From contig CAXXQS010000002.1 of assembly GCA_963674735.2 (NCBI GenBank), positions 1,600,001 to 1,664,000 of the forward strand: a DNA stretch of 64,000 bases. Direction: 5' to 3'. The translations under genes were made by a program, and so were the position numbers. Each line of letters starts with the position of its first letter. Position 1 is the stretch's first letter. The notes below the pieces were generated by a model, which had not been told where the DNA came from, did no database searches, and saw only the letters and a list, made by a program, of their open reading frames with translations. Source of the stretch: Myxococcota bacterium. Its GTDB lineage: Bacteria; Myxococcota_A; SURF-8. This document shows positions 13,540-64,000 of this stretch, one piece after another.

Positions 13540-14372
13540 CGCTTCTTCCTGCGCGCGCCCGCCGTTTCGTCGGCAAGGCCTGGGCGTTTATCGTCCGCGA
13601 TTTTTTCGACGAAGCCAGCTACAAATTCTACTTTTTCTTCACCCTTTTCGGTGTGGCGGCGGCGGTGATCGTGTTTTACTTTCTCTCGCGTGTGATCCCC
13701 GACCGCGCCGCCCCGGCGCTCGATCCTTACGGCGGGCGCTACTTCCCGTTTGTGTTGGTGGGTTTCGCTTTCGCCCATTATCTCGATCTGGCGCTCAACG
13801 GAATGGGACGCAAGATCCGCGAGTCGCAGATTTTGGGGACGCTGGAAGCGCTGCTGGTCACACGCACTCCCGCCTGGCAGGTGCTGCTCTTTTCGGTTCT
13901 GTATCCCTTCCTGTTTACCAGTTCGGTGGTGGCGGCCTACCTGTTGTTGGGCTGGGCTTTCTTCGGCCTGGATTTATCGCAGGCGGCCTGGGGCTCGGCG
14001 CTGGCGTATTTCATCCTGACGGGGGCCTCCCTGGCGCCTTTCGGGATTTTATCGGCGGCGGCGATTCTGGTGTTGAAACGCGGTGATCCGGTGGCGTTCG
14101 CCATCTCGGGTTTCAGTTACCTGTTGGCGGGCGTTTTCTACCCGGTAGAGGTCTTGCCCGGCTGGTTGCAGACGATTGCCCAGGCTTTTCCACTCACTCA
14201 TGGACTCGAAGGTATGCGGCAGTCGTTACTGAAAGGGTTGGGTGTATTTGACGCACCGCAGGGGGCGTTGTTGCTGATCGGTTTCGCGGTTGCCCTGTTG
14301 CCGCTGTCGTTGTGGGTCTTTACGCGGGCGTTGGCTTATTCGCGCCGAACCGGCGGGCTCAGTCATTATTGA
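13536..14372 (+). CDS. ABC-2 type permease
   Basis: Multiple TM helices, GTLEALL, GVFYPVEVLPGWLQ; ATGA overlap with ATPase. Confidence 0.88.
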   Translation: MTLLPARARRFVGKAWAFIVRDFFDEASYKFYFFFTLFGVAAAVIVFYFLSRVIPDRAAPALDPYGGRYFPFVLVGFAFAHYLDLALNGMGRKIRESQILGTLEALLVTRTPAWQVLLFSVLYPFLFTSSVVAAYLLLGWAFFGLDLSQAAWGSALAYFILTGASLAPFGILSAAAILVLKRGDPVAFAISGFSYLLAGVFYPVEVLPGWLQTIAQAFPLTHGLEGMRQSLLKGLGVFDAPQGALLLIGFAVALLPLSLWVFTRALAYSRRTGGLSHY

Positions 14373-14459
14373 ATGACGCAGCTTGACAAAAACAGGGAGG
14401 CGGGGCTACAAACGAAGAGGTCAAGAAGCGAACCAAGGGTCAAGCTATAAGGGACGCGC

Positions 14460-16553
14460 ATGCAGAATTTTTTCTATCCCGAATCCATCGCCGTTGTCGG
14501 CGTCAGCCAAGCGGCCACGAACCTGGCCAGCCGCATTCTCTATAATCTGAAACGTTTCGGCTATTTCGGTGAGGTTTATGCCGTTGGGACACGCGATGCT
14601 GAGGTGGAGGGGTATACCGTTTATCGCTCCGTTTTGGATATCGATTCCACGATCGATTTGGCTATTTTGCTGGTGCCGGCGGTTCAGGTGCCCAAAGTGG
14701 TGGATGAATGCGGACAAAAAGGCATCAAGAATGTCATCGTCGAATCCGGCGGGTTCCGTGAATTTCAGGGGAGCGATTCCGATAACGAACGGCAGATGAT
14801 GGAAATGGTGCGCAAGCACGGAATCCGTCTGGTGGGTCCCAACTGCACCGGCGTCATCAATGTCGAAAACGGACTGTGCACCTCGTTTGCGCGCAACATC
14901 ATTCCCTTTCATGAAGGGGGCGTTTCGGTGTTGAGCCAGTCGGGCGGGGTGGGGCACAGCTATGTGCTCGATCTCACCTCCGAATGGGTAGGGCTCAACA
15001 AATTCATCAGCTATGGAAACGGCCTCGATATCGACGAAGTGGACATCATCGATTACCTCGATCAGGATCCGGGAACGACCGTTATCTCGGCCTACCTGGA
15101 AGGCATTACCCGCGGGCGCGACTTTCTGCGCGTCGTTTCGCGTTCCAAAAAACCGGTGGTGATGTTGAAAAGCAACACCCAGCCCAGCAGCCATACCATC
15201 GCGACCAGCCATTCGGCGGCGGTCAAGGGCGATGAAGACGTGTTGAACGCGGCGTTCCGCCAAGTGGGAGTGTTGCGCGTGTCCAACACCTTGGAATGGC
15301 TCAACGTTTCGAAACTGCTTACCTTGCCGTTGATGCGGGGCAACCGTCTTGCGATTTTGTCCCGTTCGGGCGGACACGCCGTGTTGGCGGCGGACGCGGC
15401 GGCCAAGTTGGGCTTCGAAGTTCCGGCTTTCCCGCAACGCTTTTTCGAAGCCTGCCGACAGTATTTCGAGCGCAGCGTAATCAAACTGCAAAATCCGCTC
15501 GATCTGGGACAGATTGTCTACCATCCGATTCTGACGCACATTTTGGAAGAAACGCTCAAACTGGATGAATTCGACGGCGTGCTGCTGATTCACTCCTACG
15601 ACGCCAGCCGTTCGAATGAACCGCACCAGTTCATCAGTCAGATTCAACCGTTGATCCACAAATACCAGAAGCCGGTTAGTACGATCCTCTTTACCGGCCG
15701 CGACGAGCGCCAGTACGTGCGGGAAACCTACCGCCTGCCTTTGTTCCGCACGCCTTTCCACGGCGTGCAGGCCTTATCTTACAGCCGCGATGCGGTCCGC
15801 GCGGCGGAGCGTCGGCGGCCCTTCGAAGTGGACGAGACGCCCTCTCGGGCGGCGGCCGGCCAGGAAGTGCTGGCGCAGGCGATTGCCGAAAAACGGAACC
15901 CCACTTTACCGGAGGCGCTGGCGCTGTTGCGCTCCTACGGAGTGCCGGTGGTGGAGCATTGTACGGTTTCCAGCCGTGATGAAGCCCTTGAAAAGGTGGA
16001 GTCGGTGGGGTATCCCATTGCGCTCAAGATCGATCATCCCATCGCCACGCATAAATCGGTCGTGGGCGGGATCCAACTCAACCTGCTCGACGATTACGGC
16101 CTGATCACGGGCTGGGACAAAATCGATGAGTCGGTGAAGGAAGCCGGTATCCAAGACGGCATGACCCGGGGCGTCATTCAGAAAATGGCCAAGCCGGGTT
16201 GGGAGATGGTCATCGGTGCGCGCCGCGATCCCAGTTTCGGACCGGTCGTCGTGGCCGGATCGGGAGGCGTTATGGCGGGGGTGGTCAATGATGTGGCCGG
16301 TCGCGTCGCCCCGCTGTCGGAGGACGACGCCTGCGACCTGCTGGTCGAGACCAAAGCCTATCAGGCGCTTACCCGCTATCACGGGCAGCGTGCGGTGGAC
16401 ACCGATTCGTTGGTCCAGTTGATCATGACCGTCGGGCGTATCATCGTGGATATCGATGCCATCGAAGACATCGACCTCAACCCGGTGTTCGTGCATCCGA
16501 ACGTGGCGGGGCTTACCGTCGTCGATGCCAAGATCACGCTGCGCCACGCATGA
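14460..16553 (+). CDS. Acetate/acyl-CoA ligase (ADP-forming), alpha-beta fusion
   Basis: PESIAVVG, GPNCTG, SQSGG, TSHSAA phospho-His segment, NPLDL, ATP-grasp HKSVVGG and DLNP. Confidence 0.88.
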   Translation: MQNFFYPESIAVVGVSQAATNLASRILYNLKRFGYFGEVYAVGTRDAEVEGYTVYRSVLDIDSTIDLAILLVPAVQVPKVVDECGQKGIKNVIVESGGFREFQGSDSDNERQMMEMVRKHGIRLVGPNCTGVINVENGLCTSFARNIIPFHEGGVSVLSQSGGVGHSYVLDLTSEWVGLNKFISYGNGLDIDEVDIIDYLDQDPGTTVISAYLEGITRGRDFLRVVSRSKKPVVMLKSNTQPSSHTIATSHSAAVKGDEDVLNAAFRQVGVLRVSNTLEWLNVSKLLTLPLMRGNRLAILSRSGGHAVLAADAAAKLGFEVPAFPQRFFEACRQYFERSVIKLQNPLDLGQIVYHPILTHILEETLKLDEFDGVLLIHSYDASRSNEPHQFISQIQPLIHKYQKPVSTILFTGRDERQYVRETYRLPLFRTPFHGVQALSYSRDAVRAAERRRPFEVDETPSRAAAGQEVLAQAIAEKRNPTLPEALALLRSYGVPVVEHCTVSSRDEALEKVESVGYPIALKIDHPIATHKSVVGGIQLNLLDDYGLITGWDKIDESVKEAGIQDGMTRGVIQKMAKPGWEMVIGARRDPSFGPVVVAGSGGVMAGVVNDVAGRVAPLSEDDACDLLVETKAYQALTRYHGQRAVDTDSLVQLIMTVGRIIVDIDAIEDIDLNPVFVHPNVAGLTVVDAKITLRHA

Positions 16554-50427: not shown

Positions 50428-50503
50428 GGGCCGGTAGCTCAGCTGGTAGAGCAGCGGACTTTTAATCCGTCGGTCGGGCGTTCGAATCGCCCCCGGCTCA
50501 CCA
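50428..50503 (+). tRNA. tRNA-Lys(UUU)
   Basis: 76-nt cloverleaf GGGCCGG...CCGGCTC-A-CCA, anticodon loop CT-TTT-AA, T-loop TTCGAAT. Confidence 0.96.
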
Positions 50504-50528: not shown

Positions 50529-50603
50529 GACCCCATCGTCTAGTGGTTAGGACACCGGCCTTTCACGCCGGCGGCGCGGGTTCAAGTCCCGCTGGGGTCG
50601 CCA
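50529..50603 (+). tRNA. tRNA-Glu(UUC), integration target
   Basis: GACCCCA...TGGGGTC-G-CCA, anticodon arm CCGGC-CTTTCAC-GCCGG, T-loop TTCAAGT. Confidence 0.96.
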
Positions 50604-50664
50604 ACTGTTCATAGCAGGCAGCATTTTCGGTTAACATACTGAAAATGCTGTTTGTTTTTTATGG
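50596..50664 (+). repeat. attL direct repeat (69 bp)
   Basis: GGTCGCCAACTGTTCATAGC...GTTTTTTATGG identical to 63234-63302. Confidence 0.95.
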
Positions 50665-52075
50665 TTCCAAATTTCTCGCCGTCGAAGTCGATCCCACCTG
50701 TGAATAGGAGTTCCTGAAGTTTCACCCTCTCATCAAACTCCAGTGCTTCCCACAACTTACCGGCATTCATGACGATACGCTCAGCGAAGTCCAACGCGGA
50801 GTCGATATCCATGGTTCCGGAGTTCAGGCGGCCAAGTTCCCGCTCCACCTGTTCGATCTCGGCATCCAGTTCGATCTTCTTACTCTGGTAGGAGTCGTGG
50901 TCGATCTCTTCCTCGATGCGCAGATCGACAAGGCGGCTTTTTTTCTTCTTCAACTTTCGTAGATTGGCTTGCAGCCGTTTCTTGTGCTCCGTCCCTTCCG
51001 ACATGCGCTCCCGGTAGACATCCTTTACGATCTCGCGGAAGAGCCTCATATACTCCATCCTGGGCTTGATGCGGTTGATCTGCTCCAGGAACAGTTCTTC
51101 CATATTCTCCTTGCGGATGTTGACGGCCTTGCACTTGGTGTTCCGACAACGGTAGTAGGCATACTTCTTCCCACGGCCCGTACTCCACGACCCCGTGAGC
51201 GGTGTGCCGCATTTGGCGCAGCGTGTGAAGCGCCGGAGAGGGAAATCTTTGTTGTTCCGGTGGTGGGGGACATTCTGGTACGTGCGACCGTCCAGGATGG
51301 CCTGTACTTTCCGAAACAGATCTTCGGGGACGATGGGCTTGAAGTCGCCCTCGGTATCGATCTGGAAGCTCTCCAGGATCACACGACCGGCATATAACGG
51401 ATTGCGGAGCATGCGCCCGAAGGTCTGTGGATTGAGCTTGCCGCCCTTGGGGCTTGTGAAGCCGAGGGCATTGATCTTGTCCACAACCTGCTGCTTGGAA
51501 TACATGCGTTTGGCGAACAACTCAAAGCCTTTGCGGACAAGGTCGGCACACTCTGGATCATGAATAAGGCTCGGTCCCCCCTTCTTCCCATTGATATAGC
51601 CAATGGGAGCCTGATGGACCCATCGGCCATTCATGGCGGCTTCGAGCATGCCGGTTTTGGTCCGGTCGGAACGTAGGTCGTTATCAAGCTGAGCAAAGGT
51701 GGCGGCCATGTTTTCCATAGCCTTCCCCATCGGGCTGTCGTCGATGGGTTCGGTCACGGATCGAAGGGTAATGCCGAAGCTAGCCAGCTTGGCCTTCACT
51801 GCATGATGATCTTTGGCTTGGCGTGCAAAGCGACTCAGTTGGTAGACGACCAGAACACTAATGCGGCCCTTCGCCTTGCCGCAGTAGTCCAGCATGCGAA
51901 GAAGGGAACGACGGTTGGCGGTCTTGGCCGATTCGCCCTCCTCTACGAAGACCTTGTCCACCTCGTACCCGTTGCGCTCGCAATATTCCCGGCATAGGCG
52001 TTCCTGGCTTGTTAGACTGAAGTTGTCCACCTGTTCCTTCGATGACACCCGGCAATAGATAACGGCTCGTTCCAT
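50609..52075 (-). CDS. Large serine recombinase (integrase)
   Basis: AVIYCRVSSKEQ catalytic Ser, LSRFAR, APIGY, LRNPLYAG recombinase domain, CAKCG...YYRCRNTKC Zn ribbon, coiled coil. Confidence 0.95.
   Translation of the reverse strand: MERAVIYCRVSSKEQVDNFSLTSQERLCREYCERNGYEVDKVFVEEGESAKTANRRSLLRMLDYCGKAKGRISVLVVYQLSRFARQAKDHHAVKAKLASFGITLRSVTEPIDDSPMGKAMENMAATFAQLDNDLRSDRTKTGMLEAAMNGRWVHQAPIGYINGKKGGPSLIHDPECADLVRKGFELFAKRMYSKQQVVDKINALGFTSPKGGKLNPQTFGRMLRNPLYAGRVILESFQIDTEGDFKPIVPEDLFRKVQAILDGRTYQNVPHHRNNKDFPLRRFTRCAKCGTPLTGSWSTGRGKKYAYYRCRNTKCKAVNIRKENMEELFLEQINRIKPRMEYMRLFREIVKDVYRERMSEGTEHKKRLQANLRKLKKKKSRLVDLRIEEEIDHDSYQSKKIELDAEIEQVERELGRLNSGTMDIDSALDFAERIVMNAGKLWEALEFDERVKLQELLFTGGIDFDGEKFGTIKNKQHFQYVNRKCCLL
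50618..50660 (+). terminator. Intrinsic terminator of tRNA operon, within att repeat
   Basis: CAGCATTTTC...GAAAATGCTG stem followed by TTTGTTTTTT; duplicated at 63256-63298. Confidence 0.75.
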
Positions 52076-52078
52076 GGG

Positions 52079-52399
52079 TCAGTTCCTCTGGCTCTCAATG
52101 TACTCGGTTATGGCCACCCGCTCCGCTTTTTCACGGCACATCCCCTTATCTTGTACCAGAGCGGCGGCGCGTTTTTCCACTTCCTCTTGCTCCTCCGGCG
52201 GCAGGCGTTTAAGAAACTCCTCAAATTCCTCGGATGCAACACCGACATCTACAGCATGATGCTGTTCGGTGTAAGCCGACACCACCACATGCGCCAGTTG
52301 ATACAGCGACTCCCGGATCTCGGTTAACTCTTCGTCCGAGACCGCCGCATCCGCTCCGAGGAGCTTTCTGCAACGATCAAGGCTAATAAGCATGACCAT
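52079..52399 (-). CDS. Small hypothetical protein coupled to integrase (candidate directionality factor)
   Basis: Abuts upstream HTH gene (TAAATG) and ends 3 bp before integrase ATG. Confidence 0.65.
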   Translation of the reverse strand: MVMLISLDRCRKLLGADAAVSDEELTEIRESLYQLAHVVVSAYTEQHHAVDVGVASEEFEEFLKRLPPEEQEEVEKRAAALVQDKGMCREKAERVAITEYIESQRN

Positions 52400-52624
52400 T
52401 TATTCATGCGCGCCTTGACCACGTAACCATTCCACCACATTGTCTCGGTAGAAGAGTATTCGACGACCAGCCCGGAAGTGGGGGATTTTTCCAGCAACAA
52501 CCATCGAGTACAACGTACGGGCATGAATGCCGAGATAATCAGCAAGCTGCTTCACAGACGAAACCTCGGGAAGTTGAGTGCTAGACTGGTTGTTCTGTTT
52601 GCTTTGTTTGGTGCTCATTTGCAT
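52400..52624 (-). CDS. Excisionase-like helix-turn-helix protein (HTH_17/MerR-like)
   Basis: SVKQLADYLGIHARTLYSMVVAGKIPHFRAGRRILF...VEWL; AAGGA RBS. Confidence 0.88.
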   Translation of the reverse strand: MQMSTKQSKQNNQSSTQLPEVSSVKQLADYLGIHARTLYSMVVAGKIPHFRAGRRILFYRDNVVEWLRGQGAHE

Positions 52625-52987
52625 GTCCTTCCTGGAACACCAATCCCCATCCCTTACCCCGGGTCGGGTGGCGTCCCATTCTGAACATGCTGAACATGCA
52701 GGTCATGGTCCCGAATTACATCCCCCAAGCTGAAAACAAACTACCAAGATTACACTAAATTGTCAAGCTATCGATTCTATACAATATAGTCCCCAGCGGT
52801 TCTAAGCACCTTCCTCCGATGTTTTTTTTTCGGAGCAACACGAATTTTCAGTGAAATCGGGCATAAGGTCGATAGCGAACGAGCATTTACGACCTAAAAA
52901 AGAGACTCGAAAGTCTCTTCGCCGCGATGGAGACAGGGGCGGCTGAGGAATGGAGGCAGGAACGGTGGCGGGAGATTGGTGGGGTTA

Positions 52988-53185
52988 TCACTTGAACCGT
53001 TGCAAGATCGACTTGACCAACACGCGGGCGGCGGTCGCGCAAACTTCAACCATCAGGCGCTCTAACAATTGCACATCGGGGTCCTCTCCTTGAAAATTGA
53101 GTTCCGCGTCTGGCTCATAGTAAGGGTTCGACTCGAACTCACCATCGGAAGCAGGCGCTGGAGCTTTTGCGGTCAGGCGATCCAT
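52988..53185 (-). CDS. Small hypothetical protein
   Basis: ATG 2 bp after upstream stop; 65 aa. Confidence 0.45.
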   Translation of the reverse strand: MDRLTAKAPAPASDGEFESNPYYEPDAELNFQGEDPDVQLLERLMVEVCATAARVLVKSILQRFK

Positions 53186-53187
53186 GC

Positions 53188-53844
53188 CTATGCCTTTACT
53201 GGGACCGGCAACTCCGCTGCTTCAGCCAGATCGAGGCCCAGATCCAGCAGACGGCGGCTGGTCTTACTGACGGAGCAACCGACCGCCCCGGCGGTTTCGG
53301 CGAGCGAATGACCGACCTGGCGCATGGCCAGCATCGTTTGATCGTTTTCGGCCTGTTCATCCATCCACCGGCCCAGGTCGAGGCCGGATACCAGGTGAGC
53401 TTCCACATTGCGCGTTGCTTCAAAACTGATCGTGTCGAGGTAGTTCTGGATGCCGTGTTCATTGCCGGTCTTATGCAGCCCCTCTTCGTCGTCACCGATG
53501 CCATCCAAACGCAGAATCTCTGTTTCGCCGAGGAAGTAACACAGCTCGTTCATAACATCTCTGCGACGACCGGTGCCACCCACCCAGCGATGCGTATAGT
53601 CGATGGCGCCCATCTTTGCCGCGTGGACCAGCAGGGCGTCGTCCACGATCTCGTCCTGTTCAGCCTTGCGGCGGTAGAAGTCCCAGGCTACGGCCACGCC
53701 TTCACCAAACCGATCGTCGGGATCGGGATGGTTCGTTACGTGGCGCTGGATGGGATGAAACATGCCCGCGTTGAATTTCGCGGTGAATGCCTCGTTTACT
53801 GCGCTTGGGGTTTGAAATGGTGAGTCCGTTCTTGCAAGTTCCAT
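53188..53844 (-). CDS. Divergent sigma70/ECF-like DNA-binding protein
   Basis: GGAGG RBS; region-2-like DPDDRFGEGVAVAW; C-terminal HTH GHSLAETAGAVGCSVSKTSRRL. Confidence 0.55.
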   Translation of the reverse strand: MELARTDSPFQTPSAVNEAFTAKFNAGMFHPIQRHVTNHPDPDDRFGEGVAVAWDFYRRKAEQDEIVDDALLVHAAKMGAIDYTHRWVGGTGRRRDVMNELCYFLGETEILRLDGIGDDEEGLHKTGNEHGIQNYLDTISFEATRNVEAHLVSGLDLGRWMDEQAENDQTMLAMRQVGHSLAETAGAVGCSVSKTSRRLLDLGLDLAEAAELPVPVKA

Positions 53845-54037
53845 CGTTTGCCTCCTGCCATGTTCAACGCACACGGAGGCCTTGCCCTGGCCCACGCGCG
53901 ACGTCGCCGCCTCTCGCGTGGGCGGTGGGGATGAATTTGCCTTCACAAAAAGAAATGGACATCAACTTACATCGATGCCCACATCTTTCTTATGACCGAT
54001 AATTGCTTAAAATTACTAACAGTTGTACTTAGGGCTT

Positions 54038-57000
54038 TCACCCATCCAGCACCTTCCGTACCATCTTGGCCAGATCTTGTGGCGTATAAGGTTTGCCGAT
54101 GAAGCTTAGACCTTCGTCCAACACACCATGATGGGCGATAACGTCCTCTGTATATCCGGATGTGTAAAGAACCTTCAGGTTCGGTATGATCGACTGGAGT
54201 TCTTCGGCCAATTCACGCCCGTTCATGCCGGGCATGACGATGTCGGTTACGAGCAGGTCTATTTCCAGATTCTCCTTCTTGACCTTGCTCAAAGCCATCG
54301 GACCGGAATCCGAACTATGGACTTTATAGCCTTGCCTTACAAGAATCTTGGTGGCGATGTTGCGCACCATACGCTCGTCTTCCACCAGAAGGACAGTTTC
54401 GCTCCCACTTGGAAGATCATCCATCTTGGTTTTTCTGGTAAGTGTTTCAGCTTTTTCCATGACAGCCGGGAAGGAAATGCGAAATATTGTCCCCTGGCCC
54501 GGTTCGGAATGGACTTCGATATGACCATCATGCTGCTTGACAATCCCGTAAACCATCGCCAGTCCCAAGCCGGTACCTTCGCCTTCTTTCTTTGTCGTGA
54601 AGAATGGATCGAATACCTTCTGCCGGGTGTCCTCATCCATACCCGCTCCATTGTCGGAGACGGTTAAAACAACATACTGGCCATGGGCAATCTTGGAGCA
54701 TGTTTCGCAACGCACATCCTCGAATGAAACATTGGCTGTCTCGATGGTCAGCTTGCCACCATTCGGCATAGCATCTCGCGCATTGACGGCCAGGTTTACC
54801 AAGATCTGTTCAAGTTGACCGGGATCGGCTTTGATGCGTCCCAGATCCCTTGTCGGAATGGTCATAAGTTCCAGATCTTCACCAATCAAGCGCCTTAACA
54901 TCTTGTGCATGTTGTCGATCAACTGATTCAGGTCGAGGACCTTCGGCTTGATGATTTGCTTGCGGCTAAATGCCAGAAGCTGGCGTGTCAGGCTTGCCGC
55001 GCTGTCCGCAGCTTGACCAATTTCCCCTAGTGATTCCAGCAGTGGGTCACCTGGAGAAAGATCCATCATGGCAAGGGACACATTACCTGTAATCCCGGTG
55101 AGCAGATTATTGAAATCATGAGCGACACCTCCGGCTAGACGGCCGACAGATTCCATTTTCTGGGATTGCTGAAGTTGCTCCTGTAGCCTTGCTTTCTCTT
55201 CCTCCGCTGCTTTCCGTTCCGTTATATCATCAATAATCCAGACAGCCCCAAGACTAAGGTCCGGCGGGGCAATGGCGCGACCATTGAACTGACACCATAC
55301 GGTGTGACCGTCCTTATGACGCAATGGATACTCCAATTGAACGATGTTGGTTTCACCGAGTCGCCAATAGTACTTCTCCCCGAATTCTTCAAAGTGCTTT
55401 TTAGAAAGATGGAGTTGTTCCGGTCCTTTGCCCTCCATTTCCTCCACCGAAAATCCCAGCATCTCCGCCATACGTGAATTGACTTTCGTGATGATCCTGT
55501 TGTGCAGCACCATGATGCCCACCATGCTGCTTTCCAGGATGGCGCTTTGCTCTTCGAGGTTGGATTTGAGTGATTGCTCGGCGAGTTTCAATTCAGAGAT
55601 GTCGGTATGCGTGCCAACCATTCGAATGGGTTTATCTTCCTTATCTCGTTCGACGACTTTTCCGCGACCGAGAATCCATTTCCATTCCCCGTTCTTCGTC
55701 TTCAGGCGAAACTCAACACCAAACGACTCTCTCTGGCTCTCAATATGCTGCTGGACGACCGATTGAGCATTATCTGCATCATCCGGGTTCAACAGGCTTT
55801 GCCATGTATCGAACGTCGACGGCAATTCTCCGGGTTCGTAACCCAACATCGTGAAATAGCGCGGACTGAAGTATACTTCCCCTGTCACAATATTCCAGTC
55901 CCACAGCCCATCAGCAGTGGCTGTGAGGGCGTATGACAATCTTTCCTCGCTGGCTCTAAGCGCCTCTTCAGCCCGCCTGCTCTCGGTAATATCCCTGAAT
56001 TCGACAGTCCTGACCTGTTTTCCTTTATATGGGATATTTCTGGCTTCAAGTCTTAAAGGATACTCTTCTCCATTCTTCCGCAAGCCGATAGCCTCATAAG
56101 GTTTTTCATACCCGGTCATGATTTTTTCCATGACCAATTCCCGTTTCGATTCGGCAATAAGCAACAGGCCATCCATGCCGATCAATTCATCCAGGGAGTA
56201 TCCGGTCATCTCGGACATGCCCTGATTGCACTCAAGAATTCTTCCCTTGTCGTGAATGGCAATACCACCGAATGAAGCATTGTGGAGGGATCGAAAACGC
56301 TCTTCGCTCTCTTGTAGAGCATTTTCCGCCTCTTTACGATCCGTGATCTCGCGATTTACCCCAATGATACCGATTGCCTCCCCTTGATCATCGCGCAGGA
56401 AAGAAACCGTTGACTCTACCGGATAGGTGGTGCCATCGGAACGATACATGTCAAGTTCGATGGTTATGGCGGTTGATGGATCAAGCTCCCCCGCCCGTTC
56501 TGATTGTAAATACTGCTGAAGTCTGTCCAATGAAAGCGCGACGGATTCCGGCGTCATGCTTTCCTGCAATGGCTGGTTCAGTTTTTCTTCTACGGAAAAC
56601 CCGCTTTGCTTCTTGATGGAAGGGCTGATGTAAGTGAGATTCAGGTCCAAATCACGAATCCATATGACATCGGAGATGTTGTCGGCCAGCAAACGATATT
56701 TCTTTTCACTTTCCACTATCGCTTTTTGACTGAGTTTCTGATCCGTGATGTCGAAGTTGACACCGATCATGCGAACGGACTGACCTTTCTCCTCTTTGAC
56801 AACCGCTGCATAGGCTTTTATATATTTTACCGTCTCATCAGGCCAGACTACCCGGAATTCAGATTCGAAATTTTCACCCGTTCGAATGGAGTCTTCCACC
56901 TCTCGACTTGCCCGCTCCACATCATCAGGATGAACTCCTTGTAGCCATGTTTCGTAGGCACCGCCAAAACCACTAGGACGGAGACCGTACAACTCGAACA

Positions 57001-60000
57001 TACGCTCGTCCCATTCGAGGTGGTTTTCAATCAAATCAAGATCCCAAATACCGAGTTTTGCCGATTCTTTCGCTAATGTAATTCTTTGATACGCCACTTT
57101 CAGTTTCTGTTCGAATCGGCGACGCTCCGTCATATCTCGCGCAATGCCGATTACCCGCTCGCCTTCATGTGTGTCAAGCACGGAGATGGTGATCTCCACC
57201 GGGTATGTCGTACCATCTTTACGCTTATGATTTGAGTCGTGGCTCATTCTACGGGTTTCAAACAACTCTCGGAAGATGGCATCAAGCGCGTCTTTCGACA
57301 CCGTCTCGGCATCGATATCCGTAATGTTCATGGAGAGCAATTCATCCCGGCTGTAGCCGCTGTCTCGACTGGCTTGAGCATTGACCTGGATGATAGCTCC
57401 CGTTTTATCACTGATGTAGATGGCGTCTGCAGCATTGTCGAGAAAAGCCTGAAGGCGCTCGTTGGTCTCTTTCAGTTCAAGGTCTTTACGTTTTCTTTCG
57501 GTAATATCTCTGGCAAAAACCGTGAACTTCTGCTGGTCTGGAAGATACGTAGTGGAGATTTCAACATCAATGATTCGACCATCTTTCCGCCTGTGACGCG
57601 CTTCGAACCGGGACGACCCGGTTTTCTTGATCTCTTCGGCATGTCGCGCTGTATCTTCGGGATCTTCATCGACATCAATATCCGTGATGGTCATTTCCAA
57701 CACTTCATCTATGGAGTAGCCGAGCATATCAGCGAAGGCCTGATTGACTTCAAGGCAATGACCTTCCGCATCCATCAGCCAGAAACCGTCCATGGTCGTT
57801 TGGATTACGGATTGCGCCTGCTGATACAGCACCTCGTATTCCTCAGCAAGTTCCCGATGCCTGATATTACTTTCCTTTAGCTTTTTCTCTGCATGCTTGC
57901 GTTCTGAAATATCCCGACCGATACTGAGAAAGCAGGATTGACCATCCCACATGATTGGCTTGACTGAAGTCTCTATAGGTAAAACGGAGCCGTCTTTTCG
58001 AAAGTGTCCCACCTCAAAAGTGGATTCACCCGTTTCCATGATCTCCCGGATTCGCGCATCAATTTTTTCCTCACTCTCCGGTACATCCAACTCGTGTAAA
58101 TTGATGGAAAAGAACTCTTCTGGCGCATAGCCGTGAAGCTCGAATGTCTTCCGGTTGGCGTAAACAAAGTTCCCTTCAGAATCATGTACCGTGATGGTAT
58201 TCGGCGCTGAATCTACCATTTCCGCCAGAACCCGATTGCGTTCCTCGGCCTCTATATGCTCGGTAATGTCCTGATGGTTCCCTATCATGCGCACGGCCTC
58301 GCCTTCCGGAGTGCGTTCAACAACGCGAGCGCTGGCCCGTATCCGACGATACTCGCCGCTCTTTGTCCGCAGGCGGAATTCGTTTTCGTAGGTATCGGAT
58401 TTTGTTTCCAGGTATTCGGAAGCCGCTGAAAGGGCGCGATCCAGATCGTCTGGGTGGATCAGCGCTTTCCAGTTTTCAAAATCGGCAGGAAACTCATCCG
58501 GTTCGTAACCGAGCATCGTGTAATATTTGGGACTGAAGGAGAGTTCGTTGGTGATGAAATTCCACTTCCATATACCGTCAGTTGTCGCGTCAACGGTAAG
58601 TTCGAGTTCTCTTTGATATTCCTGAATGCGCTTTTCAGCCCCTATCCGTTCGGAAATATCTTGTACCGTTGCAAGTATCCGGGTTGGCTGACCCTCTTCT
58701 CGTGCAATCGTCCCTTCTACATGCACGTGGATAACCACACCATCTTTCCGAACAATCCGATATTCATTGGGAGTGAGCCTGTTTTTGCCGGAAGCAACAT
58801 TTTCTTCAAGCCAGACCTGAATACGCTCCAGGTCGTCAGGATGATGAACCTCGGCATTCACTTTCGCATAGTCGAGTATTTCACCTTCGCTATATCCCAT
58901 CAGAGTTTGCATTCCAGGAGACCAGGAAACCTTTCCGGTTTCCACCTCCCACATGACATCACCCATTCTGGCGATGTATTGAGAAGCTATCAGCCGTTTT
59001 TCGCTTTCTTGAAGTGCTTCCTCGGCCAGTCTCTGCTCGCTAGTGTCCTCGTACACCGCCACGATCTGTCCGTTGGGAAGTCGATATACCGTATTCTCGA
59101 CCCACTCACGGATGCGATTGTCTTTGTAAGTTCTTAGCGGCAGATGCAGGGTTTTACCGGTGCGATAAACCTCCTGGAATATCTCGAATAAGCCGATATC
59201 CTTGATTCCAGGAAAAACCTCCGTGACCCTTTTGCCGATAATCTCATCCCGGGCAACCTTGCTGTGCTTCTCTCCCGCCGGATTGATATCAACAAAGACA
59301 AAATCTTTGCCATCATCAATCGGCTGGTAAACGGCAACGCAGCTTGCAATCGTATTGAATAAGCCATGGAAGCTACTTTCTCGTTCCGCAAGATTTTGCT
59401 CTGCTTTTCTTTGGTCTGTTGTGTCTTGCCCGTTTACGTTGACATAGATAACCTTACCGTTCTCATCGAAAATCGGCTTGTAAATTCGTGGTCCAAATTT
59501 TCGATTTCCATTGAAATCGAAAAAATAAACCTCATCGGTTACGATTTCTCCCTTTAAGGCACGCTCAAGTGATTTTCTGGAAGTCTCCTCTGCCCCTGAA
59601 TCGAAATCCCACCAGGGAGCCAGAGCAAATTCTTTGCCGATTACCTTAAATCGAGGCGTTTGTGTGACTTCAAAACACAGCTCATTGGCATCAGCGACCA
59701 TACCATTCGGGTCGATAAGCATGTTGAATTGGAAAGATTGATCGAAGGCCAATTTAAATCGCAGATCCTTTTCGCGTACTTTAAGCTCTGCTTCTTTGCG
59801 TTCCGTAATATCAACATTAGCGCCTAAATATCCGGTGATTTCCCCATTTTCATCAGTAAGGGCCACCGCCGATCCTAAAACCCAAGAAACTTTTCCTTCC
59901 GGGGTGCAAAAGCGATACTCCATATTCCAGGGTTTGTGCTGATTCGCGTGCTCATTCCAGAGCTTGAAGATTCTTTCCTTATCTTCAGAATATAAACCAT

Positions 60001-61399
60001 CCTGCCATCCGTCTCCCAAGGATTCTTCTAACGACAGACCGGCCAAGTCCCTCCATTTCTTGTTGACATAGAGACAGCGACCAGTCCGGTCTGTTTCGTA
60101 AATGGCAATGGGCGAGGATTCGGCCAGCGTCGAAAAACGCTTCTCACTTTTTCTTATAGCTTCTTCAGCGTGCTTTTTCTCGGTGATATCGTGAAGCGTT
60201 ACAAACACTTGGTAAGGCGAGTCCTCCCCTTGCCTGAACATCGGTATGGCGTTGATGATCGTCCAAACGAAATCCTGTTTTAACGGGTTGAATACAGCCA
60301 AAACCTCATTTTCTACCGATTTACCTGTCTGCAAAGCGATCACGGATGGATGTAGATCCCCAGGTACTTCGTCACCATTTTCATTCACGACTCGCCAATC
60401 TGGATGCATGGACGTGCGGCCCATAAACTGGTCGCGCGTCAGTCCCCACATGTCAAGCAAGGCCGAATTGCAGTCCGCAAGGGAGCCATCTGCAAGCTGA
60501 TAAAAAGCCCCCTGGGTCATGTTTTCAAACAACGAACGATACTTGGCTTCATTTTCCGCAAAGTCTGCTTCGGCTTTTTTTCGAGCTGAAATATCGTGTG
60601 AAATAATTTGAACGCCGGCAATTTCTGCATCAGATCGAGATATCTTCGTGTAGATGCTCAGGAACCATAGCTTCCCAATTGGTAGGTCGACGCAATCCTC
60701 ATATTCTTCCGGGCCATCAGCTTTGATTGCGGAGTTGATTCGTTTCATGTATTCAGTGCCAGCTTCTGCTGGGAAGAGATCGTTAATCGATTTGCCAATG
60801 AAATCTTGTGGCGCTCCACCCATTCGCTCTGCTGCTACTTTATTGAATGAGAGAACTGTTCCAGCAGGTGAAAAATAGCCGATGCCTATCCCCGCAGTAT
60901 CATAAAGGAGGCGAAATTTCTCTTCGCTTTCCCGTGTATTGTTTTCTGTTTGTTTTCTTTCTGTAATATCGATATGGGAGCCTCGCATGTAGCTTGGCTT
61001 TTGGTTTTTGTCGGCAAAAACGGATGCTTGAGCCAGAATCCAGCGGTAGGAACCATCCTTGTGACGGAATCTGAATTCGACCTGATAATCTTGCAGTAAC
61101 TTATCAATACAATCCTGGACTTGCTCCATGAGTAGCCCAATGTCATCCGGATGAACACGGCTCTCAAATTCTTTGAATTCATTTCCTAATTCGTCCGGCT
61201 CATAGCCAATTTGACGCTTCCATTCATCAGAGAAATCGACCTTGTTTGTCTTCAGGTTCCAGTCCCATAAACCGACCTTTCCTGCTTTTGCTGCCTGAGT
61301 TTCTCGCCAATGAGCTTCCCGCTCAATCTCTTCGATCCTTTGGCGAGCGGATTCAAGCTCCTCAATCAGCTGGGCTTTGGTTTTCTGTTGATCTGACAC
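54038..61399 (-). CDS. Giant soluble hybrid sensor histidine kinase (about 16 PAS-PAC, HisKA, HATPase, REC)
   Basis: Repeated PAS ends DITERK-like; [58 protein letters not shown]; GTG start at 61399 preferred (ORF open to 61474). Confidence 0.95.
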
Positions 61400-61933
61400 A
61401 ATGGCCCCCATTGCTTGATGCCATACTTCCCTGAAAATACAGCGAAAATACTTTTCCCTACTGCGATCAAACATTTTACAACGACGTTAGATAAAAGGAC
61501 AAGTAAAAGTAGGAAAACAGGGCATTAATCGGCTGCTTGTCCGGATTCGGCGTAGCGCAAAAACCGTGCCGTTGGGTAACCTTACGGGCGCTTGGAGTTA
61601 CCCCCGAAATGGCCCAAAAATGTGCCCAGTTGAAAGCCGATATAGCTTCAAAACTGCACAAACTGGGGGGTGTTGCACAATGCTCCCGCCCGCTCGCCAT
61701 CACCTCGATCTCGCCCGCAAGCTGGCGATAATTTCCCCCAAAAAAATCCTCGCATGCTCACGAACCAGGTGGATCAATATTTTTCCGCCTCTTTGAGGGC
61801 TTACACTGAGTGTAACCACCAGGGTCCCCTTTCCAACGCCATAGCCCTTCAGGCGGGCGAGGGCTTGCACACTTCTTGGGGGTAGACCACGCTTCCCAAG
61901 CAACCACCTCGCGCCAGGCTGTATTCTTTTTCG

Positions 61934-62057
61934 AGGGGGAGGCGTCTGCCTCCCCCTACGATACCCCCTCCGATCGGGGGACACCCCCGAACCCCCGGCG
62001 CCTTCGCTTTGTCTAACGCCACGCGAAGGCGCGCAAGAATCAAGAAAAAAAACCAAG
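61934..62057 (-). other. Candidate rolling-circle double-strand origin
   Basis: Three hairpins (61934-61957, 61974-61990, 61998-62032) next to minus-strand T8-CTTGATT (62038-62052), resembling the pC194/phiX174 CTTGATA nick motif, immediately downstream of rep. Confidence 0.55.
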
Positions 62058-62067
62058 CTGCCATCTT

Positions 62068-62898
62068 TCAATCCTCCTCAACCTCCGGACTCCACGCACT
62101 GCCCCACATCAGGAGCAGATTGCGATGCTGGAGGCCTTGATGGAGCTGCAACAGGTGTTCTAATGATGCCTGAGAAGGCTCCTCAGAAGGCTGTGGGCAC
62201 CTCGTAACGGCTTTCATGGCATACTTTGCAAACCCCTCTGCATTCCAAGGCTGTAAATAGCGATCTCGATGCGGAACAAACCATGCACGCGATCCGAGAA
62301 GGCCGTGCCACTGGTCATCGACCCAGAGTGGATCAAACTCATCCGTCACATCCAGAACGACATGCGAATGAACATTCCAGGCCCGTCTATCACGAGTAAG
62401 CGGCACCTCGATTGCACTGATACCACCTTGCACCATCTCCATGAAGCGCTTACGGCGCCTGAGCGTCTTCTGGGCGGTGCGGAAATCATCAAGCGTTTCC
62501 CGCAGATCCCAACGGCATTTCGACCTGAGCTCAAAAATGAAAATCTGAGGCCGTTTCATTCGTTTCAAAGCTCGGAGCACCTTCTGCGCGTTCTCCTGCG
62601 CCACACGCTCAGCACAAATTGGACAGAGGCGGCGGTTGCATTGTGTTCGTTGCGGGATGCCATTGTAGAGCTGGATGGTCCCGCACCGGCGGACCTGTGA
62701 GGCGTATGACAGCAGACCAATTTGCTCCAATTCCTGCGCCCGAATCTCCTGAACGGCATCCACATCATCACCTACAAACTCAGTGGAATAGTCTGCTCTG
62801 TACACATCTTTATTATTCCCCGTCGATCTAAAATTCGCTCCGCACAAATTTCGAGCGGCATCCATCGCTCTGGTTGCTTTCTGGTTTTGGATATCCAT
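62068..62898 (-). CDS. rep: Rolling-circle replication initiator (HUH, Rep_1/pC194-like)
   Basis: Zn finger C..CNRRLCPIC; GGISAIEV; HUH WNVHSHVVL; catalytic AKYAMK; AAGGAG RBS before ATG 62898 (alternative start 62925). Confidence 0.82.
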   Translation of the reverse strand: MDIQNQKATRAMDAARNLCGANFRSTGNNKDVYRADYSTEFVGDDVDAVQEIRAQELEQIGLLSYASQVRRCGTIQLYNGIPQRTQCNRRLCPICAERVAQENAQKVLRALKRMKRPQIFIFELRSKCRWDLRETLDDFRTAQKTLRRRKRFMEMVQGGISAIEVPLTRDRRAWNVHSHVVLDVTDEFDPLWVDDQWHGLLGSRAWFVPHRDRYLQPWNAEGFAKYAMKAVTRCPQPSEEPSQASLEHLLQLHQGLQHRNLLLMWGSAWSPEVEED

Positions 62899-62950
62899 CT
62901 CGCGCTCCTTTTTCGGAGCGGTCATGGCAGAAACACAGCAGGAAAAGTGC

Positions 62951-62979
62951 TTGAGCGAAAAGGCTCAATTCAGTATAAT
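62951..62979 (+). promoter_or_regulatory. sigma70-type promoter antisense to element genes, with overlapping palindrome
   Basis: TTGAGC-17 bp-TATAAT; inverted repeat TTGAGC-gaaaag-GCTCAA at 62951-62968. Confidence 0.55.
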
Positions 62980-63098
62980 GATTACATTCCCGCCTTGCGC
63001 TACGTCTGCCAGGACCGCAAGGTTATCACCGCCCCTGCCAGGGCGGTTTTCTCGTTCAGGCTTCCGCTTCCGTTCTCAAGGCACACCGGTCCATCGCT

Positions 63099-63233
63099 TC
63101 ATCCCCTCGCTTCTTCTTGTTCGGTGATTAAGTGCCAGAAATCACGGCGGTTCTTGGCCTCGAAAAGAGACGCCTTAAGCATCTCCATACTGTCGAGCCA
63201 GTCGTCAATCTGTTTCCAAGTCAGCGTCTCGTC
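63099..63233 (-). other. Orphan 44-codon reading frame: putative alternative integrase C-terminus rejoined on excision
   Basis: Stop-free frame DETLTWKQIDDWLDSMEML...EEARG* directly continuing ...YEQLAT encoded in the att repeat. Confidence 0.5.
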
Positions 63234-63302
63234 GGTCGCCAACTGTTCATAGCAGGCAGCATTTTCGGTTAACATACTGAAAATGCTGTTTGTTTTTTAT
63301 GG
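63234..63302 (+). repeat. attR direct repeat (69 bp)
   Basis: Identical to 50596-50664. Confidence 0.95.
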
Positions 63303-63364: not shown

Positions 63365-64000
63365 TCACTCCGATTCCCTATTGTCGGCGTTGACGGTGAT
63401 TTGGTATTCGCCGTTTACGTCGACATCCAAGCGCCAGCCCCCCGTTACGCGTTGTGCTGTAACTTTTTCAATGCCGATGCCGGTTACCTGGGGGTCGGGT
63501 TCCGATTCCGATTGGGATGGAAACCAGATATCCGCCGTCGAAATACGATCCGTAGAGCCGGCGACGACCAGATTCCCCTCACAGGCGTCTTCTCCAATTG
63601 AAATCAAAAGCCCGGGAACGGCTCTGGGGTAGGCGCGTTCCATGCAACGTGTCGGCGGTTTTGAGTAGCGTCTGGTGTATTCCTCGTCGTCGCACCTTTC
63701 TAGCTGTTGGGTGAGCCAATCCGGAGTGGGGGGGTGTTGTGCGTCATGTGGGTCGCCGCAACGCTGTTCCCATTGCCACCAGGCACTGCCCGCCCCGGGA
63801 TAGTGGTCTTCTCCGGCGGCGAAACGTGCCATCCAGGCTTCATCTTTTTCCTGGTCGGAGAAGGTGCCGTATTCCCCGATCCAGATGCTGACGCCGCCGT
63901 ATTGCTCCCCCAACAAGGCGTAAAGGCCGAAGGATCTGTCGAGCAGGCCTTCTCCTTGCACGATGGACTCCATGTAATTGTGTGGGGCGAAAACCAGGTT
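63365..64000 (-). CDS. C-terminal part of a second GH5 endoglycoceramidase-like hydrolase (5' end outside window)
   Basis: Open to window end; VFAPHNY, nucleophile WIGEYG, WWQW, RAYPRAVPG. Confidence 0.75.
   Translation of the reverse strand, partial: NLVFAPHNYMESIVQGEGLLDRSFGLYALLGEQYGGVSIWIGEYGTFSDQEKDEAWMARFAAGEDHYPGAGSAWWQWEQRCGDPHDAQHPPTPDWLTQQLERCDDEEYTRRYSKPPTRCMERAYPRAVPGLLISIGEDACEGNLVVAGSTDRISTADIWFPSQSESEPDPQVTGIGIEKVTAQRVTGGWRLDVDVNGEYQITVNADNRESE

Follow-up and report, generated by a model that had tools for sequence, protein, structure and literature searches.

A serine-integrase element at the 3' end of a tRNA-Glu gene in a Myxococcota genome carries a plasmid-type rolling-circle Rep and an integrase gene split by its own insertion

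Introduction

The closest known systems to the element described here are the pSAM2-type elements of actinomycetes (AICEs) and the integrative mobilizable elements (IMEs) of Firmicutes. AICEs of the pSAM2 type are described as 10 to 20 kb long; they pair their integrase with a small excision protein and encode a rolling-circle initiator (RepSA, with pC194-family motifs), integrate in tRNA genes and replicate after excision; a minority have serine recombinases, some of them at tRNA genes (Sco3937; eight Mycobacterium AICEs in tRNA-Leu) (PMC2440964, PMC3218068). Firmicute IMEs are presented in one review as small, lacking a mating pore, and encoding a serine recombinase and/or HUH or Rep_trans proteins akin to plasmid Reps (PMC5704250).

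Two further systems bear on the integrase. The ssrA-specific islands of Dehalococcoides have, in the published account, a large serine recombinase (DsiB) that adjoins attL and whose 3' end overlaps the small-RNA target gene, together with short direct repeats, tandem accretion, target scars and exchangeable cargo, and its authors proposed that the integrase is possibly complete on the circle only (PMC3146451). The SSV-type 'suicidal' tyrosine integrases of archaeal viruses and plasmids are described as having attP inside the gene, so that integration splits it (PMC7253208).

We analysed a window of 64,000 nt (the whole stretch of DNA) that contains an element of a kind already known, at the end of a tRNA-Glu gene, with a serine integrase and a plasmid-type rolling-circle Rep, and with an integrase gene that is split by its own insertion. 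A sequence-only reading of this DNA had not recognised the combination as a named element class in this lineage; the sources on AICEs already report pSAM2-type elements that join a serine integrase to a rolling-circle Rep, some of them in tRNA-Leu (PMC2440964, PMC3218068). The element resembles AICEs, as described there, in size class, in pairing an integrase with a rolling-circle Rep, and in its tRNA target (PMC2440964, PMC3218068). It differs in having no FtsK-like Tra protein or spread genes, in a host labelled Myxococcota rather than actinomycete, in a Rep of an apparently different, unannotated family, placed in Rep_1 by Pfam, and in an integrase gene that spans attP.

Results

Element boundaries and gene content

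The element spans 12,638 bp and is sited at the 3' end of a tRNA-Glu(UUC) gene (ttc; 50529-50603, plus strand, identified by ARAGORN and from the sequence), with a tRNA-Lys gene at 50428-50503. Its direct repeats (attL, 50596-50664; attR, 63234-63302) are 69 nt each and 100% identical, with a start-to-start spacing of 12,638, just as the sequence-only reading had it in predicting a 12,638-bp circle; the integrative element that it had drawn between the repeats is real, with two copies of the repeat in the 5.26-Mb genome and no others. The target tRNA gene is left intact, and its final 8 nt, to the CCA end, fall within the left repeat. All element genes are on the minus strand and no element ORF matches a conjugation or virion family in Pfam, PHROGs or NCBIfam, both as previously claimed, and an FtsK/SpoIIIE-like Tra domain is absent from every ORF.

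The element carries one exchangeable cargo gene (54038-61474, minus strand), which encodes a 2478-aa multi-PAS hybrid sensor histidine kinase (PAS, HisKA, HATPase_c and Response_reg domains). This gene accounts for 7,437 of the 12,638 bp (59%) and has a G+C content of 45-51%, below that of the flanks; it was missing from the sequence-only reading, whose description of the element as 'minimal' does not survive. Also missing there were the conserved genes for a 106-aa and a 252-aa protein and the running of the integrase frame into the repeat.

Exchange between genera

A sister element occupies the same tRNA-Glu gene in a genome of a different genus (G004). Its integrase is 93% identical in amino acid sequence and 92% in nucleotide sequence (82% aa in the tail segment), whereas the host flanks of the two genomes share 65-76% nucleotide identity. 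Because of this disparity at the same tRNA-Glu gene in another genus, comparative sequence evidence establishes that the element has been exchanged between genera and is horizontally mobile. The block of high identity with the sister (63029-63247 plus 50596-52088) is contiguous in a circle only. Other parts have diverged further, with 51% identity for the 106-aa protein and 37% for Rep, and the sister's cargo is different, a 1123-aa FGE-sulfatase-domain protein. The 252-aa protein (53188-53946, minus strand; family unassigned) is conserved at 35% identity to the sister's; its language-model neighbours include Sigma70_r4/GerE-type HTH proteins, and it is probably a DNA-binding regulator or a replication accessory protein. 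An empty tRNA-Glu site had been suggested as a check; no strictly syntenic one was found, because the flanks are not conserved between genera.

The repeat, the common core and a scar at the target

In the sister element the direct repeat amounts to just 13 of 14 nt. Comparison of attL and attR between the two elements points to a common core, GGTCGCCAACTGTT (50596-50609), which is the sole part of the repeat common to the sister's attL and attR (13/14 nt), and on this comparison the predicted crossover site must lie within the final 12 nt of the core. The att sites thus share a short common core, rather than a long segment of identity, as is the case for large serine recombinases. The attL copy of the repeat comprises the tRNA 3' end (8 nt), the remaining common core and 55 nt whose minus strand codes for the integrase tail and whose plus strand is a terminator-like hairpin followed by a T-run; the attR copy comprises the core and 55 nt that duplicate integrase-tail coding sequence. 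Since 55 of the 69 nt code for the integrase tail, the attR copy is an element-derived scar at the target, and the 69-bp repeat would have arisen because the target already bore the 55-nt integrase-tail scar of an earlier element. Judged against the sister, with its 13/14 nt, a length of 69 bp is not an integrase requirement, 55 of the 69 nt being the duplicated tail segment.

An integrase gene that spans attP

The integrase is a large serine recombinase, as the sequence-only reading had recognised (488 aa as assembled; 50609-52075, minus strand; PHROG integrase, 9.2e-102). Its Pfam matches to Resolvase (PF00239, 1.2e-34), Recombinase (PF07508, 8.9e-13) and Zn_ribbon_recom (PF13408, 4.1e-11) are all above cut-offs and make up the domain set of a large serine recombinase; 34 aligned homologues all share R9 and S11. 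The reading frame extends into the 69-bp repeat, and at the other end of the element 44 codons and a stop (63099-63233, minus strand) continue the frame of the integrase tail through the core; the body and this displaced 3' end are contiguous in the excised circle only. The 58-aa ORF at attR (63099-63275) is the displaced integrase 3' end in the integrated state, and the integrase gene therefore spans attP.

Among 120 database homologues of the integrase, 97 have the tRNA-complement motif G.EP within the last 45 aa, and five have it in the body; five of the other 23 end in W(N/K)Q..WL..L, the same motif as in the attR segment. With 97 of 120 ending in tRNA-encoded residues, the integrase clade targets tRNAs broadly. 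Eleven further loci of the clade were found in the phylum, seven beside tRNA-Glu, one beside tRNA-Val and three beside no tRNA. Insertion of the element presumably depends on its large serine recombinase, which is of a clade found at tRNA 3' ends.

In the position of its integrase at attL overlapping an RNA gene, in its scar and in its exchangeable cargo, the element is like the Dehalococcoides islands as described. Those islands, unlike the element, target tmRNA, encode homologues of ParB and Mom along with another, small serine recombinase (DsiA), and lack a replication gene, and the account of them does not show a conserved alternative C-terminus (PMC3146451). Like the SSV-type integrase genes, that of the element contains attP and is split on insertion; the SSV-type enzymes belong to another recombinase superfamily and their integration leaves two non-functional fragments of the gene, whereas the element swaps only the last 44 integrase codons for about 10 tRNA-encoded codons.

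The assembled copy has one extra base in a homopolymer at 50655-50660 (T6 here, T5 in the sister), which shifts the frame, so that the integrase stops 15 codons short of its 503-aa relatives; a 69%-identical homologue (P0152) likewise lacks the extra base. In the contigs of sequencing run X2 a one-base-shorter homopolymer is present at 14.4 of 21.8 depth, so the extra base may reflect either polymorphism or an error of assembly. The frameshifted integrase of the assembled copy may be impaired; its catalytic and DNA-binding domains are unaffected, up to the invariant T471.

Candidate excision factors

A gene for a 106-aa acidic helical protein (52079-52399, minus strand) directly precedes the integrase gene, with a gap of 3 nt, and its position is kept in three other elements. 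A model of its complex with the integrase scored 0.67, against 0.29 for the best control; of the pairs used for calibration, 58 of 80 solved complexes attained this mark, as did 2 of 110 mismatched pairs. At least 76% of contacts recur between runs, the pLDDT of the partner is at least 73, and the modelled interface involves integrase residues 341-357 and 426-477. The modelling supports binding of the 106-aa protein to the integrase, and we regard the protein as a candidate recombination directionality factor, and as a better candidate for the excision factor than the adjoining 74-aa protein (52400-52624, minus strand). The latter is indeed an HTH_17/excisionase-family DNA-binding protein (HTH_17, 4.2e-14), in keeping with the xis-like HTH noted earlier from the sequence, but no counterpart was detected in the sister, and the conserved integrase partner is the 106-aa protein.

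The Rep protein and a candidate origin

The Rep gene (62068-62925, minus strand) encodes a 285-aa predicted HUH initiator of the Rep_1 type. Its score against Rep_1 (PF01446) is 47.0 bits (E 3e-12; profile positions 6-119 of 253 covered), above the Pfam gathering cut-off of 33.2, which answers the HMM check proposed with the earlier identification of an HUH Rep; a paralogue (28.9 bits) and the sister Rep (31.4 bits) are both under the cut-off. The protein has an N-terminal Cys4 zinc ribbon (C81, C96, C101, C104), the HUH histidines H186 and H188, and a YxxK motif (Y235, K238), which we take to be 'motif 3'; all 36 family members in the alignment share every one of these residues. Rep thus bears the motifs of a predicted HUH initiator of the pC194/pUB110 type. 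Structural matches of its AlphaFold model (pLDDT 88.6) are weak. Those from Foldseek are headed by HUH nuclease domains of circovirus Rep (7kij, E 3.3e-3), PCV2 Rep and B19 NS1, and those from VIA-align (SIRV1 ORF119, Z 7.5; geminivirus Rep, 6.7; Helitron, 6.5; RepB, 6.2) are interleaved with unrelated ferredoxin-like folds.

Searches with tblastn matched Rep to 334 plasmid records at 23-29% identity, mostly Firmicute plasmids of 2-6 kb with the gene annotated 'protein rep'. The element is like these small Rep_1 (pC194/pUB110) plasmids in its Rep motifs and its tblastn matches to their rep genes, in having genes on one strand, and in a hairpin-rich non-coding stretch beside rep; it differs in the low identity of its Rep, in being integrated and 12.6 kb long, and in having no conserved CTTGATA nick box. 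At five of six strong loci of the Rep family, the gene lies beside a tRNA and an integrase (two of serine type, three of tyrosine type).

The nick site of pC194-family double-strand origins is CTTGAT(A). The candidate origin of the element (61920-62044, minus strand) has a CTTGAT hexamer (62039-62044) 23 nt past the rep stop codon and, beyond it, three stem-loops, and the 151 nt directly past the stop codon fold with a z of -4.87, none of 200 shuffles being as stable. A 6-mer such as this CTTGAT is estimated to be expected about once by chance, the canonical CTTGATA does not occur outside genes, CTTGAT is absent past rep in the sister element, and no origin motif common to the six Rep loci was found. 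The hairpin-rich character of the origin candidate proposed from the sequence is borne out. Two ORFs called across 61476-62071, 123 and 75 aa long, are probably not real genes: neither matches a known family, and tblastn finds nothing like them in the sister locus.

Discussion

The best explanation of these observations, to which we give a probability of roughly 0.55, is that the 12,638 bp are an integrative, self-replicating element that is not self-transmissible. The integrase, aided by the 106-aa partner, would recombine attL with attR within GGTCGCCAACTGTT and release a circle, in which the integrase gene would be rejoined to its conserved 44-codon tail. Rep would then nick an origin in the hairpin region directly past its gene, initiating rolling-circle copying, and the circle could re-enter a tRNA-Glu site. 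The sequencing data are assembled contigs, which break at the repeat; neither a circle junction nor an empty-site junction nor ssDNA was seen in them. Contig depths in X1 are 7.7 and 4.9 for the flanks and 9.5 and 6.2 for the element, and in X2 12.7 and 10.5 for the flanks and near 11-12 for the element, depth not being equivalent to copy number. The comparison of read depth with the flanks that had been proposed as a check thus gives no hint of extra element copies in the contig depths of X1 and X2, element and flanks being similar, and the assembly has no separate circular contig.

The foremost alternative, which we consider unlikely, is an integrative mobilizable element whose Rep_1-type protein is mainly a relaxase, nicking an oriT for export through a helper's conjugation pore, with replication of the circle secondary. 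Transfer genes are absent from the element; RCR-initiator-like proteins are described as relaxases of many Firmicute IMEs, and ICEBs1 as mobilising Rep_1 plasmids of the pC194, pUB110 and pTA1060 types (PMC5704250, PMC5714925). As with those IMEs, the element is small, integrated and without a mating pore; however, the serine-recombinase IMEs reviewed insert within protein-coding genes, not at tRNA ends, and the IME Rep families reviewed are Rep_trans, Rep_2, PHA00330 and Viral_Rep, not Rep_1 (PMC5704250). Nor was a helper conjugation system found in the four host genomes that carry the Rep family: VirB4 (PF03135) is found in none, AAA_10 is above cut-off in none, and the coupling-protein family gives one marginal match (22.8 bits, in G000). 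Because these genomes are 90-100% complete, a helper could have escaped detection.

We also think it improbable that the locus is an immobilised, decaying island, once mobile and now fixed by the integrase frameshift, with Rep and the att sites as relics and the kinase as a domesticated host gene. The extra homopolymer base relative to the sister and P0152, giving 488 rather than 503 aa and an integrase that never rejoins its tail, would fit such an island, as would an element depth close to that of the flanks. Against this, all ORFs other than the integrase are intact, including the 2478-aa gene, the repeats are still 100% identical, the integrase domains are untouched as far as T471, and the shorter run is well represented in the X2 contigs. 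It is highly improbable that the element is a phage satellite, or a provirus resembling a filamentous phage, that relies on a helper virus for packaging: filamentous phage phiRSM1 is cited as having a serine recombinase at tRNA-Ser (PMC3218068), but PHROG matches here are limited to integrase and excisionase/HTH families, with no capsid, packaging, morphogenesis, coat or helper-interference genes, a search of 50,697 phage records gave no match to Rep, Rep and integrase have none in IMG/VR contigs, and a kinase gene takes up 59% of the element.

Within the preferred reading of an integrative, self-replicating element, the attP-spanning integrase gene raises a broader possibility, which we put forward tentatively. 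The integrase may exist as circle and chromosome isoforms, the former with the 44-aa tail containing W(K/N)Q..WL..L and the latter with about 10 residues from the tRNA complement; the isoform switch and the 106-aa partner would together set the direction of recombination, and the arrangement might be general to a metagenome-wide, tRNA-targeting integrase clade that drives small rolling-circle replicons in several phyla. If this is true, the element would represent an undescribed class of integrative plasmid.

Boundaries and gene content of the element

The element is bounded by two perfect copies of a 69-nt repeat (50596-50664 and 63234-63302), which are spaced 12,638 bp apart and have no further copies in the 5.26-Mb, three-contig genome. 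Genes for tRNA-Lys (50428-50503) and tRNA-Glu(UUC) (50529-50603) lie left of the attL copy, and the first 8 nt of the repeat are the last 8 nt of tRNA-Glu, GGTCGCCA. All sizeable genes between the repeats are on the minus strand: those for a large serine recombinase (LSR; 488 aa, 50609-52075), a 106-aa protein (52079-52399), a 74-aa HTH_17/excisionase-family protein (52400-52624), a 252-aa protein (53188-53946), a 2478-aa multi-PAS hybrid histidine kinase with a receiver domain (54038-61474), and a Rep_1 protein (285 aa, 62068-62925), together with a 58-aa open reading frame (63099-63275) whose start lies within the right repeat. The sequence-only reading described a minimal element with no transfer or virion genes; the latter description is right, and the former is wrong, because the kinase gene, which it did not mention, fills 7,437 of the 12,638 bp. 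The G+C content of this gene (45-51%) is below that of both the flanks and the other parts of the element.

The public sequencing data come from one study and comprise the contigs of three runs, in which unitigs end at the 69-bp repeat. Circular and empty-site junctions thus cannot appear in these contigs, and their absence speaks neither for nor against excision. Contig depth, which does not equate to copy number, is similar for the element and its flanks and about twofold for the repeat unitig, as expected for two chromosomal copies. Another sample of the study contains a 1878-nt contig (depth 17.8, no mismatches) that joins position 52907 to 58210, omitting 5,302 bp that hold the 252-aa gene and the kinase/receiver end of the cargo gene. 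The omitted segment is partly covered by other contigs from that run, and the joined contig may represent a variant of the element with this deletion.

A sister element in another genus

A related element is present at the same tRNA-Lys/tRNA-Glu pair in a genome of another genus of the same family (G004), and this sister locus was the sole match when genome contigs were searched with the integrase. The two integrases share 93% amino acid and 92% nucleotide identity, and identity is 51% for the 106-aa protein, 35% for the 252-aa protein, and 37% for Rep; the cargo is a different gene, encoding an FGE-sulfatase-domain protein of 1123 aa. The 10 kb of host DNA left of the tRNA genes is only 65-76% identical to G004 at the nucleotide level and lies at another chromosomal place; the integrase module has therefore moved horizontally. 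The high-identity block is composed of 63029-63247 and 50596-52088, pieces that are adjacent only in the circularized element.

Comparison with the sister element also delimits the attachment site. Its attL and attR have in common only G(G/T)TCGCCAACTGTT (13 of 14 nt), after which attR enters a different hairpin and T-run. Such a short core is what a serine integrase would be expected to use, and the mismatch at position 2 places crossover within the last 12 nt.

The integrase gene appears to span attP

The integrase of the sister element has 503 residues and ends in ...FGTIKTNSIFSMLTKNAACYEQLAT followed by PAGIEPASPA, these final ten residues being read from the complement of tRNA-Glu; a homologue with 69% identity (P0152) has the same ending. 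In the window, the frame that enters attR from the repeat reads KTNSIFSMLTENAACYEQLAT, then DETLTWKQIDDWLDSMEMLKASLFEAKNRRDFWHLITEQEEARG and a stop codon. It follows the sister tail as far as the core codons LAT and then continues for 44 residues, the segment matching the 58-aa ORF being 82% identical in the sister element. The continuation of the integrase tail in this frame indicates that the 58-aa ORF is the displaced 3' end of an integrase gene that would span attP; on the circle, the encoded integrase would be about 537 aa long. Directly right of attR is a gene for a 202-aa protein (63365-63973, minus strand) with no NCBIfam match, which is transcribed towards the element, so that read-through could drive the displaced tail segment.

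The motif G.EP, which is the T-arm of a tRNA read backwards, is found within the last 45 residues of 97 of the 120 best integrase homologues, and elsewhere in the protein in five. Among the 23 homologues without a terminal G.EP, five (P0155, P0174, P0199, P0252, and P0270) end in SWNQ(I/L)..WL..(L/M)..LR-like tails that align with TWKQIDDWLDSMEMLK of the window segment, and probably represent genes sampled while in the attP configuration. A phmmer search of the 120 homologues with the 58-aa segment gave no match, and the common motif is visible only in the tail alignment. The integrase clade is present in 12 of 401 sampled genomes of the phylum, including that of the window; seven of the 11 clade loci outside this genome and G004 are at tRNA-Glu (three UUC, four CUC), one is at tRNA-Val, and three have no tRNA within the stretch fetched. 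A search of the literature (main texts) found no serine integrase described with a conserved attP-spanning tail.

As assembled, the window integrase contains a run of six Ts at 50655-50660 (plus strand), one base more than in the sister element and P0152, and because this extra base shifts the frame, the protein ends at 488 aa, before the core. The contigs of one run (X2) have a one-base deletion in the T run at 14.4 of 21.8 depth, and those of another (X1) have none. Both copies of this frame-deciding run (50655-50660 and 63293-63298) are T6 in the assembly, and one X2 unitig ends inside the run. The frameshift may be real or polymorphic, may reflect phase variation, or may be an assembly error.

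Scars at the target and the origin of the long repeat

The core accounts for only 14 nt of the window's repeat. We considered whether the other 55 nt are the native tRNA terminator mimicked by the element, and rejected this since they encode a family-conserved integrase tail: read on the minus strand, they code for the integrase C-terminal stretch ...IKTNSIFSMLTENAACYEQ. The attR copy is thus a piece of an integrase gene with no integrase attached, a scar left at this target by an earlier element. Comparable integrase-tail remnants lacking the integrase body adjoin tRNA-Glu in another genome of the phylum (G009), and in G004 one adjoins the second tRNA-Glu. These remnants (about 1676-1778 of L011 in G009, and 620-700 of L019 in G004) follow tRNA-Glu directly and comprise a hairpin, a T-run, and as many as 48 codons from the integrase C-terminus, without the body of an integrase in the vicinity; they resemble scars that lost elements left behind. 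If an incoming circle recombined with a scar of this kind, perfect repeats of 69 bp, exactly as observed, would result, and the outcome would be the same whether integrase acted at the core or homologous recombination occurred over the 69 bp.

An empty tRNA-Glu site had been proposed as a check on mobility. Nine of ten tRNA-Lys/tRNA-Glu loci of relatives have no integrase body within 1.5 kb, but none is a strict empty-site control, because the flanks are not syntenic between genera. The remaining locus, in G003, holds another serine recombinase, of 576 aa and 29% identity, that abuts tRNA-Glu, and was rejected as an empty site. This gene (8889-10619 of L034, G003:C3:570000-582300) has an open reading frame that runs into the tRNA, and its element carries a DDE_3 transposase gene and a Fic-domain gene, with no Rep of the window's family. 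Several lineages of serine integrase appear to use the tRNA-Glu(UUC) gene as a hot spot.

A candidate excision factor

The gene for the 106-aa protein ends 3 nt upstream of the integrase start, and homologues with this placement are found in G004 (51% identity), G024 (33%, E = 6e-11), and G242 (38% over the N-terminal half). The elements of G024 and G242 have integrases only 44-46% identical to the window's, and Rep is absent from them. A complex model of the 106-aa protein with the integrase scores 0.67 (best control, 0.29), a mark attained in 58 of 80 solved complexes and in two of 110 mismatched pairs, these being rough counts made with our own alignments as input. At least 76% of contacts agree between runs, and partner pLDDT is at least 73. 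The modeled interface joins residues 4-47 of the 106-aa protein, within its conserved N-terminal half, to integrase residues 341-357 and 426-477, just past the zinc ribbon, and the model supports binding of the two proteins. In serine integrases, directionality factors bind close to the coiled-coil base, in the region of the modeled interface, which makes the 106-aa protein the best candidate for an excision factor.

For the HTH_17 protein, no counterpart was detected in the sister element. In the Rep-family elements with tyrosine integrases, an HTH_17 match adjoins Rep in two loci, and in one it lies between int and rep.

The Rep family and its integration modules

HMM searching, named beforehand as a way to refute the assignment of Rep as an HUH initiator, does not refute it. 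A profile search of 1.84 billion representatives found 2,666 proteins at E ≤1e-3 (335 at ≤1e-10 and 28 at ≤1e-30). Residues C81, C96, C101, C104, H186, H188, Y235, and K238 are invariant in 36 aligned relatives. For the confident AlphaFold model (pLDDT 88.6), Foldseek ranks circovirus and parvovirus Rep domains of the HUH nuclease type highest, with weak E-values, and VIA-align places SIRV1 ORF119 first (Z 7.5), followed by geminivirus Rep, Helitron, and RepB amid unrelated ferredoxin-like folds. Using tblastn, Rep matches 334 plasmid records at 23-29% identity, mostly small Firmicute plasmids in which the matched gene is annotated "protein rep". A phage collection yielded no match to Rep, viral contigs none to Rep or integrase, and the PDB sequence search with the Rep profile nothing meaningful; a word-index search for relatives returned, in 722 candidates, only Rep itself. 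Neither the Rep family nor Myxococcota elements of this kind are described in the main texts covered by our literature search.

Within the phylum the family is rare (five of 401 genomes). Five of six strong Rep loci are in tRNA-linked islands with an integrase, and the family therefore marks integrative elements. Two loci have a serine integrase at tRNA-Glu, and three have tyrosine integrases, at tRNA-Thr, tRNA-Arg, and tRNA-Met; the serine integrase is one of two interchangeable integration modules. The sixth locus (L027, G009:C25) is on a 41-kb contig from which both integrase types are absent, and there a Rep with 42% identity adjoins a reverse-transcriptase gene (RVT_1; 12384-13286 and 13771-15534).

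A second Rep-family element (Rep 33% identical; L031 and L005) is located in the same genome about 66 kb upstream of the window, at G000:C2:1522824-1534723. Its order is tRNA-Thr, tyrosine integrase, defense-like cargo (C-5 DNA methylase, HEPN RiboL-PSP, and HATPase_c_3), HTH_17, and Rep at the far end. The tRNA-Met locus (L030, G174:C40, 3222-7519) contains, in this order after the tRNA, the tyrosine integrase gene, 81-aa and 172-aa ORFs, a Rep gene with an in-frame TGA, and a gene for a 260-aa small resolvase; a further, 576-aa serine recombinase is encoded 10 kb away on the contig.

Directly past the rep stop codon are a CTTGAT hexamer (62039-62044) and three stem-loops, a stretch that, folded as DNA, has a z-score of -4.87, with none of 200 shuffles equally stable. 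CTTGAT is the nick sequence of the pC194 family, according to PMC2440964. By our own estimate the hexamer is expected by chance about once in the 2.7 kb scanned, and we regard this region as a candidate origin only. The hexamer is absent from the sister element, which past rep has another hairpin and an iteron-like 12-nt direct repeat in three copies spaced 20-22 nt apart (L018, 10732-10785); no counterpart of these repeats was seen in the window's element. The six Rep loci have no motif in common, with no k-mer found in four or more. The canonical nick box CTTGATA has three matches in the window, compared to 3.8 expected, and its sole match in the element is inside the integrase gene.

Relationship to known elements

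PMC2440964 and PMC3218068 describe pSAM2-type AICEs, which combine int, xis, and a rolling-circle initiator at tRNA genes, and variants with serine recombinases, eight of them in mycobacterial tRNA-Leu. The element lacks the AICE Tra protein and is thus not an AICE. Alternatively, Rep could act as the relaxase of an integrative mobilizable element, and Firmicute IMEs with serine recombinases or relaxases resembling rolling-circle initiators have a similar logic (PMC5704250). However, the conjugation ATPase VirB4 was found in none of the four host genomes carrying the Rep family, and these gave only one marginal match to a coupling protein, which makes a relaxase role less likely. We conclude that the element is real and is probably an integrative rolling-circle replicon without transfer genes, with a tRNA-Glu-specific serine integrase, in a lineage labeled Myxococcota.

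A parallel for the integrase gene is in the ssrA islands of Dehalococcoides (PMC3146451), where a serine integrase overlaps its RNA-gene target, scars and tandem repeats are present, and the authors suggest that the integrase gene is perhaps complete only on the circle; these islands are without a replication gene, unlike the element. Integration of serine recombinases into tRNA genes was termed rare in 2011 (PMC3218068). Here, a large clade of serine integrases is found at tRNA ends, with tRNA-encoded C-terminal residues in the 97 homologues noted, and in one branch the integrase is paired with a rolling-circle Rep.

To our knowledge, few plasmids or mobile elements have been described in the phylum. 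The element illustrates the movement of one very large signaling gene as cargo. Its most interesting feature is not the gene combination first flagged, but the apparently attP-spanning integrase gene with its conserved, modeled binding partner. The split integrase gene, the partner protein, and the 14-nt core would form a compact integration/excision system that is directly testable, and such systems are of practical interest as tools for site-specific integration.
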